64,000 nt of DNA, from NCBI GenBank assembly GCA_976551045.1, contig CDPCPM010000060.1, forward strand, positions 26,412,001 through 26,476,000, read 5' to 3'. Numbering within the stretch: the first letter of the stretch is position 1; each line of letters begins with the position of its first letter. Positions 50,201 to 57,167 of the stretch are shown piece by piece. Made by a program: the position numbers and the translations under genes. The notes beneath the pieces are model-generated. The model worked only from the letters and a program-made list of their open reading frames with translations. It had not been told where the DNA came from and searched no databases. Origin of the DNA: Glaucostegus cemiculus. Its lineage: Eukaryota.

Positions 50201-50281
50201 ACTGGCAAGGCTTAAAAAAGTCGCCCATCATCTTAACAGTTTGCAGGACATGTTGACAACGACGCGGAATGCCCTATGAAG
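50201..50281 (+). other. PAX6: Pax6 non-coding exon 2 (3' part; 5' part lost in assembly gap)
   Basis: Ends TGACAAC...ATGCCCTATGAAG|gtgagt, against recalled human TGACAAC...ATGCCTCATAAAG|gtgagt. Sequence just before the gap (ttcattgtccatctctgtctcattc) resembles the 3' end of human intron 1. Confidence 0.85.
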
Positions 50282-53200
50282 GTGAGTTTACTTGTCCTTC
50301 TATTTTGTTTATTGCATTTTGAGGATCTTGTTTCACATTTTTCTCAATCGCGAGCAAAGAAACCCCTCTTTGATTTCCCATCTATGATTTATTGCACAAC
50401 TCCGATTTAGCAAACATTATTTTAACACTTTAACGAGATTGGAAGGTTGTTTTGAAATACGGCTTTGTGCACATGAGTGATCTTCCAGGAAAAATATATA
50501 ATACCAGAGAATCTTCAGGAATTGAATGGGAATTTAGCTCTGTTCACGGCCGTGGTGTTAAACCGTTCGCTCGTCTTAACTTGTAGAGTGTTTTTATTCC
50601 AATCTTCCATTCAATAAATCATTTATTCTCTGCTCGGTTTGCATAATAGCTACCGATTTATTTTAATCGGATTCGGCAGTAACACGTCCGTCTATTTTAA
50701 CAACAAATTAAATAAATTTCTGTAAGAGAATTTAGTAAAATTCCCTTCAGCAAATGTAACCCGGGCTTGGGAGCGGACCGGCGATGTATCTGAGATGTTG
50801 TAACGTGGGCTTGTCTAACGTCACTTTTTCAGCATGTTTGTAAGTAGTTGATGTTTATTAACGATAAGAAAGAGCAAAATAAGTCACTTTAGGCCAAAGC
50901 TTGTTGTTTGATGAAGATGCAATGACCCGATGATGCATTGTGTCAGTTTGAATTAAGCAATCAGCCGATTCATTAGGGCCGTTTGCACAGTGTTTTCCAA
51001 CTCATCATAACTCTGTACAAACGTTAGGATTTGTTTAAAATCTCGAAATTAACGTGCTTCGCCGTCTCGGGGATTAATGTTCAGCGAGCTAGCACCAAAC
51101 TGCACGTGTCCATGTTAAAACACAAATTAATTGGAAAAAAAACTGCTTCCCTTTTCCAATGCGGTTCCCTGAAATTATTCCATAAATATTACCCTCTTCG
51201 TTGCCTGGTTATTATAAACTTTGTTTAATTTAGAGAAAGTAATTCACTGACAATTAAAATATCGCATAGGCCGGCGAAAGAAAAAAATATCCGAGTTTGT
51301 GATATATTTTTCGGGGCGTCAATAATTCATGCTGGTAATTTAGATCCAAAATATCATTTGAAATTCAGATCCAATGAGAAGAACCAGTAGGACATTTAGC
51401 GCCTAAAGGACAGAACTTTACAAATCTTTTTATAAACTAACTACTCCATATCCAGATTCATTAATACTGCCGCACCGCGCAGTCTACTATACACGTTGGA
51501 AAGCGATCAGTGCAGATTTCTCTGTAAAATGGGTACAAATATTTCTGCTGCTAACTGCAAGCACCTTTACGGTCAAAAACTGGGAAATAGCAACGCGAGA
51601 GGAAATGATATACAAACCCGGGTTAAAATGAAACTATGTGTAAGGCCGCTTGTTTTTGTAGAATTTCCGAGTGTAAATATTTGTTTCAAAAGTCAGGAAT
51701 GGAAATAGGTATCGCCGTGGTCTTACGTCGGTTGCGGTGCGCCTATGTTGTGTAGTTGAGTAGTTCACAATATATACCCTCGGCCAGCCGTGAGCAGTTG
51801 AGCTGCTGAAACAGAGTGACAGTTTGGATCGAAATCGGCAGCAAGGCAGGACGAGGAAGATCACAATCGGTAGATTTGACGCCCTGCCGTTCGGCGTAAA
51901 AAAAAATGAAAGGCGGGGAGGGGGGGGCGGTTAGGGACAGAACTCTCCGGCCGGGCCTTTGAGAAACAACTGCTTGATCAGCACTTGTTTTTATCTGTGC
52001 ACCGACTAGACAATAGTAAACAGTGGGCTTAAAATACTGCCCAGAAATAGATCAGCGCTTCATCCGCTACTGATTACATTTTCTATTATTTAAAACTACA
52101 ATTTGATAAGGCTGTAAAACAGCGTGTGAAATTTTCAGAAAGTGATAAATTGCTTTTTGCAATCCGGCTAATTAGGAAGGCACTTCGAACGCTGGGGGAA
52201 AAAATCCATCATAGTTGAAAGAAAGCATTTTTTTATTGTATATGTGTGTTGATCAAATGTTGCAAACACACCAGCCACTTCTTAAACGGAGGAGAGACAA
52301 ATGGTCGTTCTTGAAGTCTCCCGGGCAGCGACGGCTTTTTCTAGCCTCAGTTGGAGAAGTTAAGCGCCCGGGCACCGCTTTCTCGCTGACTTCTCTGGGT
52401 AATCAGGTAGCCAGCCTTGGCTGTTGTAAATATTTACGCAGAGGAGTCTGCATGCTGGGAGAAAGTGTTTGTTTGAAGTTTATTTTTTTTTTGTGAGTGT
52501 GTGCGTGCAGGAATAGATAACAAAGCTAGTCTATAAATTATTTTCCGCTGGTTTGTAATGAATAGAATGAAGAGGGGTGGGAGGGAAAGCGAGCATCCAG
52601 GAATTTGGGTTGGGATAGACTAGTGGGGGGGAAACAATATGCATCATGCGTACGGTAGCAAAGGAAACAGAATAAAGTATTTCGAAAAAGAGAAGGTAAA
52701 AAAAAAGAAAATGAAAGCTGGTCCATTTCGTTATTGTACCCCGCTTTTAGCAAACCCCTTCAATAGAACCTTTATTGTGAATGTCTCTTCGCAATTGAGC
52801 GCCCCACCGAGCTGTTGTATCTTTATACAACCCGTACCAGCAACACAATTACCTCCAGATACTCATAACAGAAATTACTTGCTTTAATTCTGGAGGGGGC
52901 TGGTGAGTGGGGGGGGGGGGGGAGAAGCGAGAGAGGAAAACAAAAGAAAATAATAATTCTACTCAGTGACTGTTCGGTGTTGGAAGTTGAAAGTCTTGAA
53001 GAGCGCGCTGCGTTTAGCTGGACGCTGTGTTGCTGGTTGGGGAGTCCGGGAGGGAGGGGCAGCCGGAGGGTCGGGGAGGAGAGGGGGGGTGTCGGGTGCA
53101 TGCTCGATGGGTATGGGCTGTAAGCAGAATAGAGAGCATTGTTCACTTTCTGTAGTCTTTGTCGATCAGTTCTGACCCCCTCCCGTTACTACTTTTTAAG

Positions 53201-54008
53201 CAACAAGACGCGGTAGACAGCGTGTGTCAGAGTACCTCAGTATAAAGAAGACCTAAAGACCGGGAAGAAAGTTAATCATGAGTAACTAAGTTCAAAAGTG
53301 CGTTATGGTGTACAGTACCTTAAGACCTTTTTGTTGTGAATGCAAAGAATGCGCAGGACAAAAACTGTCCGAATTAAACTGTACAGAATAACATACAGTA
53401 ATATCCGCAGCAAAATCCCTCAAGTTTTTGTTTCTCTCGTCCAAACCGGGCGCCAACAATTGAGTTTAAATATATTTTAAGGGAATTAAAATGAGACGAC
53501 TTTCCGCCCACACTCGTGTCGTTATTACACAGTATTATTGCACCAGGCAGGTTCACCAGCAACAAATTGAAGTCATTAGCACGAGCTTACTGCCCGACCA
53601 CTCTCAAAAACAAGAAACAAGAACCCCGTGTGTGGAGGCAAAGTACTTTCGGATGGGCATCTGTCGAAATTCTTGAATTGAATAAAATGGGTCTTTCACT
53701 GTTCCCCATGCAAGGGGGGAATTCGAGCGGAAATCCTTAGCGCCTCTTCAAAGCAAGTAATATGCAAAAAGGAAAAAAAAACTTTCAATAAGGATGGTAC
53801 ATTGTCTTAAAAGAACCAGACCCCATTGCAAACTTTACGCTTCCCGTAGCCAAGGCCAAACACCTACAAACCGTCGAAATGTTACCGAGTGATCTGACAC
53901 CTCAAATGATCTAAATAGGGAAACTCACGAAATTGCACCGATTATATATAGTGTATTAAAACAACTTCCTGGTTACCGTAATAAACTTTTTTTTTGCTTT
54001 TTCCATAG

Positions 54009-54072
54009 AGGGAAGACTTTAACTAGTGGTAAACAGATGTCTGTGGTCACAGATTGCCAACACAGCTTTCAG
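54009..54072 (+). other. PAX6: Pax6 non-coding exon 3
   Basis: Long T tract plus ccatag acceptor, cag|gtacgt donor. Begins AGGGAAGACTTTAACTAG, matching the recalled human exon 3 start GGGGAAGACTTTAACTAG. Confidence 0.9.
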
Positions 54073-56139: not shown

Positions 56140-56425
56140 ATGAATGATATACAAATGCGGACAGAAAGGGACGTTTTATCATGATACTATTTGTCGTGAC
56201 GATGCGATTTTCAAAGTGGAACCGTGTCATAAAGTGACATGCCTGCCACAAGTGTTTGCGACGGATCTTTTCAATTACCCTTCCGTGCGCTATCCAGGGA
56301 GACTTCCGCTTATTTCTAGAAATTAAGCTCAAAGTTGACGTGCAGCTTGCTTGATTTTCGAGACAAATGTCACCAAAGCTCATCATTTTCCCTCCTATAT
56401 TCAGAGCTTATTTATGGCTAAGTGA
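56140..56425 (+). promoter_or_regulatory. Intron-4 alpha enhancer / neuroretina element and exon alpha region
   Basis: AAAGTGACATGCCTGCCACAAGTG...GACTTCCGC.TATTTC.AGAAATTAAGCTCAAA.TTGACGTGCAGCT...GACAAATGTCA...GAGCTTATTTAT.GCTAAG matches the recalled human alpha region; located between exons 4 and 5. Confidence 0.85.
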
Positions 56426-57036
56426 CTGGGCTTTTTGGAGCCAATTTAGCAGGCGTTCCCAGGGAGAGGAGAACAGGTTCACCCACAGCTTCCTCCGGGG
56501 ACACAGTGGCAGCTGAGGTCCAGTTTCAGAGTCTTCACAGGCTTACGGTTACTGCCCCCATTTCTGTTTGTAATAAGCAAATGAAATGGCTTGCGTTCGG
56601 AGTGTGGACGCCCGTTGTAATTTCGGGAAAATAGTGCGTTGCTTGCAATGTTAGCTTGAGATGAGTTTGCGAAAGAGAGTTTGCGGTAAATTGTTAGCTG
56701 AATCGCTCGATTAAGTGCCCTCTCGTCCGCTTTGCCGAAACAAAATGTTGCTTGTGTTGGCTCTCTGCTTTTAATGTGGTGGTTGGGTCGATTTAGTCCA
56801 TTGCGGTTTTTTTTCCGGTTTAGGCAACTAAACCGGCGCCTTCTTTGCTGATCAGGTATTCTGTTTTGATTGGCAGTTTTTGTGTTTAGAGCGATAGAGC
56901 GCGTTTATAGGTCAGTTTTGTTTTGCAGTTGGGATCTCCGACGGGATTAACCAAGGCCGATGTGAACCAGCGAACTTTGCTGAATGTTCCCCTTCGACTC
57001 GGCCGTTGAATATGTTCGCTGTTGCTTTACCCCTAG

Positions 57037-57167
57037 GTCACAGTGGAGTGAACCAGCTCGGCGGTGTGTTTGTTAATGGTCGACCACTGCCCGATTCGAC
57101 CCGACAAAAAATTGTGGAACTTGCCCACAGTGGGGCCAGGCCTTGCGATATCTCGCGGATCCTCCAG
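57037..57167 (+). CDS. PAX6: Pax6 exon 5 (paired domain, PAI subdomain)
   Basis: Acceptor ccctag, donor gtaaac, 131 bp. Translates [43 protein letters not shown]. Confidence 0.99.

Follow-up and report, generated by a model that had tools for sequence, protein, structure and literature searches.

The ATG at position 50269 in exon 2 of the Pax6 leader of the ray Glaucostegus cemiculus is probably the ancestral animal Pax6 start codon, kept today as the start of a short upstream open reading frame (uORF); we put the probability of this reading at about 0.7. The DNA analysed is a stretch of 64,000 nucleotides (nt), here called the window (assembly GCA_976551045.1, contig CDPCPM010000060.1, positions 26,412,001 to 26,476,000 of the forward strand), and all positions are counted from its first letter. 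Between this ATG and the paired box, exon 3 and a more recent start exon (exon 4) were likely interposed, and exon 3 would now act as a stop cassette for the uORF, so that its skipping would likely be a loss-of-function event rather than a dose switch.

Results

One upstream ATG, three predicted products

ATG 50269 sits 13 nt before the exon 2 donor (exon end 50281), and its product is set solely by the exon that is spliced to exon 2, with three outcomes. Joined to exon 3, it opens a uORF of 8 amino acids (aa) that stops at 54020-54022, 95 nt before the main ATG. On the computed exon 2-4-5 join it lies 58 nt upstream of the main ATG, that is, in frame +1, and opens a 35-aa open reading frame (ORF) that runs across the Pax6 start to a stop at 57074-57076; the initial annotation had given this ORF with the right coordinates and translation. 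On the computed exon 2-5 join it is in frame and yields Pax6 with a five-residue start, because the 13 coding bases of exon 2 and the 10 of exon 4 both end in phase 1. The ray element resembles the human exon-2/3 uORF in starting in exon 2, stopping in exon 3 and, when exon 3 is removed from the computed join, overlapping the coding sequence (CDS) out of frame.

The readable leader holds three further upstream ATGs, with ORFs of 9, 7 and 23 aa, and the one at 50276 is missing in three relatives (G>A at 50278). Use of nearby acceptors as a source of an in-frame extension was considered and rejected: an exon 4 beginning 2 nt later leads to a stop after 6 aa, and the main frame has a stop at 54364-54366. 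A second AG does lie 2 nt downstream at both the exon 3 and the exon 4 acceptors (54008-54010 and 54330-54332), and the contigs described below use the first; the second AG at exon 3, if used, would take away the stop frame of the uORF. The counterparts of the exon-3 ATG in bird and beaver models read on into exon 4 in the +1 frame; this would make them overlapping uORFs even where exon 3 is retained.

The exon-2 start resembles the short start exon of other animals

From ATG 50269 onwards, exon 2 has the form of a short start exon of the MPHKG type, namely M-P-x-x plus one base, a phase-1 donor and a frame that continues into the paired box. Three bird models (P0189, P0195 and P0196) begin exactly with the five-residue start of an exon 2-5 join. 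Across 533 fetched proteins, 38 start with M-P-x-x-G placed directly on the paired box, including those of a hagfish (P0209), an acorn worm (P0447, P0452 and P0453), a crinoid (P0207), spiders, mites, crustaceans and the nematode Trichuris; eight of the 38 belong to jawed vertebrates (three birds, the sterlet twice, eel, whitefish and filefish). When the first 40 residues of a bird model were used as query, 84 of the best 120 of 2,802 matches carried an MPHKG-type motif before the paired box and 43 started there. Among the matches listed, the motif is found in hagfish, crinoids, a millipede, spiders, mites, a horseshoe crab, crustaceans, insects and a nematode, and it is internal in brachiopods and a tunicate.

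The intron behind this start seems to be shared as well. In Daphnia, an insert that falls within codon five sets isoforms P0459 and P0460 apart from P0461 and suggests an intron of identical site and phase. All three lamprey Pax6 genes have been described with this phase-1 intron (PMC6925180), and the first coding exon of lamprey Pax6gamma ends in K-G (PMC6925180 Fig. S1). In the ray's own neighbourhood, the three relatives with G>A at 50278 read K at codon 4, like the consensus.

Exon 3 is included in the RNA contigs

Runs X1 and X10 were taken as RNA by guess, and their GT..AG joints show spliced sequence; X1 comes from an organism (A) that is a close relative of the animal of the window or the same species. 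The exon 2-3-4-5 transcript exists: X1 contigs carry GT..AG joints between exons 2 and 3 at depth 317 and between exons 3 and 4 and exons 4 and 5 at depth 419, with exon 3 included, and they use the exon 4 acceptor at 54331 (a 258-nt skip, GT..AG). No joint from exon 2 to exon 4 or exon 5 was listed among the X1 and X10 contigs, although contigs drop rare forms and cannot show absence, and the raw RNA runs X7-X9 gave 2, 2 and 12 reads only, too few to gauge exon-3 skipping.

By simple counts, the exon 3 acceptor has 17 pyrimidines in 19 positions, the richest of five scored, against 12/19 for exon 4, and the donors of exons 2, 3 and 4 match the consensus at 9/9, 8/9 and 7/9 positions, respectively. 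A comparison of the donors with background was weak (1/7 sites). Alternative 5′ exons (one at 51970-52406 and a second, with an arbitrarily set 5′ edge, ending at 47385) carry upstream ATGs of their own. Being spliced to exon 3 in place of exon 2, such first exons are an observed route to a changed uORF content of the leader.

The surplus base in exon 4 and the ray-finned fish extension

A single surplus base in exon 4 puts the exon 2-4 frame out of register with the main ATG. This base is real and the acceptor is right, because the RNA contigs cover exon 4 without gaps at that acceptor: the X1 contig crosses it with 3 substitutions and 0 gaps, and the X10 contig has the identical last 17 nt. 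Among the differences listed for the related organisms B-D (12 of 104 indels and 40 of 539 substitutions), none falls in exon 4. The initial annotation had named an assembly error, another exon 4 acceptor and a non-significant alignment with the teleost extension as grounds for refutation, and none of them holds. It had also described the surplus base as a C directly before the main ATG; the base stands, and 54368-54372 fits as its place better than the last C, by one mismatch only.

The likeness of this frame to the N-terminal extension of fish Pax6, for which the same annotation had cited zebrafish Pax6a, is above chance. When eight ray-finned peptides were placed without gaps in all six frames of the window (126,614 placements), the true site ranked first for five of the eight, second for two and within the top three for one, with 4-7 identities in 15 residues. 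The exon-2/4 frame of the window is homologous to the fish extension and one base apart from it in exon 4: the exon-2 ATG and the exon-4 leader both correspond, and the 58-nt offset leaves the ray ATG out of frame with the main one. The stop-containing main-CDS frame of the window, in turn, matches frog and lizard at 6/15 residues, and the +1 frame matches sturgeon at 6/15. As neither frame matches better than the other, the likeness of the peptides comes from homology of the DNA and gives no sign of a selected ray peptide. Many ray-finned models (P0297, P0302, P0304, P0395 and others) carry, in addition, an extra in-frame insert of 7-10 residues between exons 4 and 5.

The out-of-frame spacing is widespread

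In frog (P0103), lizard (P0099) and axolotl (P0428) models, 15 codons (45 nt) align without gaps to the main frame of the window, with 6, 6 and 5 of 15 residues identical. The three bird models have 15 codons in the +1 frame and then continue exactly like the overlapping ORF of the window, and the mammalian leaders comprise 17 codons in beaver and 17 codons in the main frame in chinchilla and rodent-like models. A search with the fish extension itself returned 79 matches, of which all the named ones are ray-finned fishes and two are sturgeons; the sturgeon cluster adds beluga and paddlefish among the 15 of its 35 members listed.

The out-of-frame exon-4 spacing is common to ray, amphibian, lizard, bird and mammal models, so that the in-frame form is probably derived. 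By parsimony, it would be the jawed-vertebrate default, one base having been lost before the split of sturgeons and teleosts, and this loss would have returned the old ATG to the reading frame, now as the start of a 19-aa extension. A bichir model (P0058) that lacks exons 2-5 and a coelacanth model (P0506) that begins at the main ATG do not inform on the leader.

The locus and its exons

The region is assigned by its sequence to the 5′ half of canonical Pax6 (Pax6.1). It has the features of this gene in cartilaginous fishes, namely paired-box exons of 131 and 216 nt, an exon 5a and a start in exon 4. Exon 6 is 99-100% identical to vertebrate Pax6 matches, and of 52 linker positions, 52 are identical in skate and ray proteins, 51 in sharks and a stingray, 48 in chimaera and 49 in human. 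The exon-4 stretch has a single match within its own genome.

Table 1. Features of the Pax6 leader and first coding exons in the window.
Feature	Position	Strand	Basis
Exon 2, 3′ portion as far as it is readable	50201..50281	+	X1 contig over 50201-50279, spliced to exon 3; sturgeon and lizard models align at the 3′ end
Upstream ATG with 4 codons and 1 base (phase 1)	50269..50281	+	Frame computation; homologous starts in other taxa
Second small uORF in exon 2, 9 aa	50250..50279	+	Computed ORF
Third exon-2 ATG, not conserved	50276..50278	+	G>A at 50278 in three related organisms
Exon 3, 64 nt, holding the exon-2 uORF stop (54020-54022)	54009..54072	+	X1 joints 2-3 and 3-4
Exon-3 ATG, opening a 23-aa uORF in frame with the main CDS; stop 9 nt short of the main ATG	54037..54366	+	Computed ORF
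Exon 4: 45-nt leader, main ATG 54376-54378, phase-1 donor	54331..54385	+	RNA contigs X1 and X10
Likeliest site of the base absent from ray-finned fishes	54368..54372	+	Fewest mismatches to back-translated fish peptides, by a margin of one mismatch
Exon 5: start of paired box, 131 nt; overlapping-ORF stop 57074-57076	57037..57167	+	RNA contigs; computed ORF
Exon 5a, 42 nt	57569..57610	+	X10 joint; translation
Exon 6, 216 nt	57742..57957	+	Identity to vertebrate Pax6
Alternative 5′ exon spliced to exon 3, without exon 2 and its ATG	51970..52406	+	X1 contig and joint of depth 6.5; X9 reads; donor
Second alternative 5′ exon, 3′ end only; probably spliced to exon 3	47355..47385	+	X1 contig loose end, 27/30 letters by eye; GT follows

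Other observations concern the surroundings of these exons. One X1 contig joins a segment of intron 4, at 56205-56609, to exon 5 (a 427-nt skip). This segment sits at the neuroretina enhancer and matches, by eye, the elephant shark element shown in PMC6925180 Fig. S2; its transcript is probably an internal alpha-promoter transcript, and the implied donor at 56610 reads GC, not GT, in the window. The acceptor and first codons of exon 5a belong to a stretch of about 40 nt that has a near-duplicate some 120 nt upstream of the exon (57420-57460 versus 57540-57580, by eye). Two stretches, at about 42850-43091 and 49660-49800, are likely upstream promoter regions by eye, candidates for those named P0 and P1; they show CCAAT-like boxes, and a site resembling a donor lies near 43092.

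Discussion

A probable former start codon and its alternatives

Several points weigh against an ancestral start at ATG 50269. The proposed homology, as read from sequence, comes down to an intron phase and five codons; the window shares three of the five residues with the consensus, and the G among them is partly forced by splice sites. The census of invertebrates is biased in that the query carried the motif, so its counts are not frequencies and it is the spread of taxa that matters. Most of the sequences are gene models with predicted junctions, hagfish is represented by a single model whose orthology is uncertain (PMC4122933), and none of the 20 cartilaginous-fish proteins fetched begins at exon 2. 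Lamprey Pax6alpha, which has Pax6.1-like synteny, is reported to start already from an exon of the exon-4 type (PMC6925180), and therefore the newer start predates jawed vertebrates. In addition, two models from Xenopus laevis fail to match the exon-4 leader (0/15), probably because of a different upstream exon, and the leaders compared came from ray, amphibians, lizard, birds, mammals, sturgeons, paddlefish and teleosts. Finally, translation of the uORF and repression by it in this animal are extended from human by analogy: in the exon 2-3-4-5 form, the uORF would be translated in the ray and would mildly tune translation, as has been reported for its human orthologue.

The exon-2 start could, alternatively, resemble the invertebrate start through convergence or by chance, with the uORF being new in vertebrates, a suggestion that draws on the brevity of the match (five codons only) and on the many insects in which the motif is internal rather than a start. 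We regard this as unlikely, as the five residues are identical in birds, hagfish, acorn worm and arthropods and come with the same intron phase. A different possibility, which is compatible with a former start codon and which we entertain tentatively, is that the ATG has been kept mainly because jawed vertebrates still make a protein from the ancestral start by a joint skip of exons 3 and 4, the uORF being a side effect. The in-frame exon 2-5 join of the window, the eight jawed-vertebrate models of that kind and the unchanged invertebrate five residues of the bird models all speak for it; on the other side, these models are predictions, the ray has changed two of the five residues, and the 20 cartilaginous-fish proteins noted above offer no such start.

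The remaining alternatives concern exons 3 and 4. The initial annotation had proposed that regulated skipping of exon 3 lowers Pax6 translation through the 35-aa overlapping uORF and so works as an on/off switch. The frame does exist and runs across the main ATG, its human counterpart reportedly reduces translation (PMC7617937), and one wall lizard model (P0099) joins exon 2 to the 45-nt exon-4 leader without exon 3, a join that fishes use. The X1 joints, however, include exon 3 at depth 317-419, the splice sites of exon 3 are strong, and stronger than those of exon 4 by simple counts, the skip is described in people as variant-caused and pathogenic, and the +1 frame is kept no better than the stop-containing main frame. 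A working switch is thus not supported, and we consider regulated skipping improbable. It is more improbable still that jawed vertebrates had the in-frame 19-aa extension from the outset and that cartilaginous fishes and tetrapods each lost it through a frameshift of their own. The +1-frame peptides of ray, birds and ray-finned fishes are indeed alike, but the same +1 shift would be needed at least twice, the ungapped 45-nt leader is common to ray, amphibian, lizard and bird, and the +1 frame has no better match than the main frame. A former start codon retained as a uORF remains our preferred reading.

Implications for PAX6

The element is the ray orthologue of a known human uORF, and the mechanism put forward in the initial annotation is largely in print, as are both halves of the comparison that it drew, the human uORF mechanism and the fish exon-2 start. 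Its view of one ancestral frame, a uORF here and a protein extension in teleosts, separated by one nucleotide, survives as regards homology and the single base; the restriction to teleosts gives way, since sturgeons and paddlefish have the extension too, and the out-of-frame form is not peculiar to the ray. Likewise, a repressive effect of the overlapping uORF upon exon-3 skipping agrees with what has been reported for human PAX6 (PMC7617937, PMC12822670), while the skip join in the ray is a computed one. What the annotation had missed is that the same ATG is in frame on the exon 2-5 join and, going by the residues, matches the invertebrate Pax6 start.

The gain is, therefore, one of history. 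A disease-relevant uORF in a dose-sensitive eye gene is suggested to be a former start codon, and one base lost in ray-finned fishes, before sturgeons rather than in teleosts, is suggested to have restored its coding role. It is tempting to speculate that a single codon, in place since the bilaterian ancestor, underlies the aniridia-linked uORF of PAX6, the extension of fishes and the Pax6/toy start of invertebrates, and that jawed vertebrates perhaps still start there by jointly skipping exons 3 and 4, in which case this ATG would yield a short uORF, a repressive overlapping ORF or a whole protein depending on the splice. A link between the PAX6 uORF and the ancestral start was not found in the literature searched, which left most subscription papers outside, and primary papers may state part of it. 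The accounts of the human uORF (PMC7617937, PMC12822670, PMC11062406 and PMC9943669), as consulted here, are silent on where its ATG came from, and nothing that bears on the matter was found in what was retrieved of PMC11936725, PMC4488758, PMC2242813 and PMC10771650.

There are also practical consequences. Zebrafish and medaka do not model human 5′ untranslated variants, because the same join is in frame there. The human exon-2 ATG presumably lies at the same distance from its donor, going by birds and fishes. If human exon 2 accordingly has the same phase, a transcript that omits exons 3 and 4 jointly would encode PAX6 in frame and could get around variants in those two exons. Should exon 2-5 junctions be translated, this in-frame route would have to enter the predictions made for splice and start-loss variants of PAX6 near exons 3-4.

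Comparison with known systems

In human PAX6, skipping of exon 3 turns the exon-2/3 uORF into an ORF that overlaps the CDS, which lowers translation and constitutes a mechanism of aniridia (PMC7617937). The same mechanism is given in PMC12822670 and PMC11062406 (both citing Filatova 2021) and in PMC9943669, and the skip is described as the result of disease variants and as pathogenic (PMC7617937, PMC7615962); PMC11998461 and PMC13087467, as consulted, give no more than variant lists. The ray and human uORFs are alike in that both cross exons 2-3, stop in exon 3 and overlap the CDS when exon 3 is skipped. They differ in their dimensions: exon 3 has 64 nt in the ray versus 77 nt in human, where it is flanked by c.-128-2 and c.-52+1, and the exon-4 leader has 45 nt versus the 51 nt that follow from these Human Genome Variation Society positions (PMC7615962).

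Translation of teleost Pax6 can start in exon 2, giving an N-terminal extension that has been called teleost-specific (PMC3554528; repeated in PMC4122933). The ray shares with teleosts the ATG and a homologous exon-4 leader, whereas its frame is one base out and its transcript includes exon 3, and the teleost extension is in frame. In contrast to the published description (PMC3554528), the extension is also present in sturgeon and paddlefish models.

The first exon of invertebrate and jawless Pax6/toy, for its part, corresponds to ray exon 2 in having four codons and one base, a phase-1 intron and a frame shared with the paired box. The ray differs in having two more exons between this short start exon and the paired box. 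The short first exons of lamprey Pax6 have been equated with mammalian exon 4 (PMC6925180), which fits Pax6alpha, but in our own reading the K-G end of Pax6gamma looks like exon 2.

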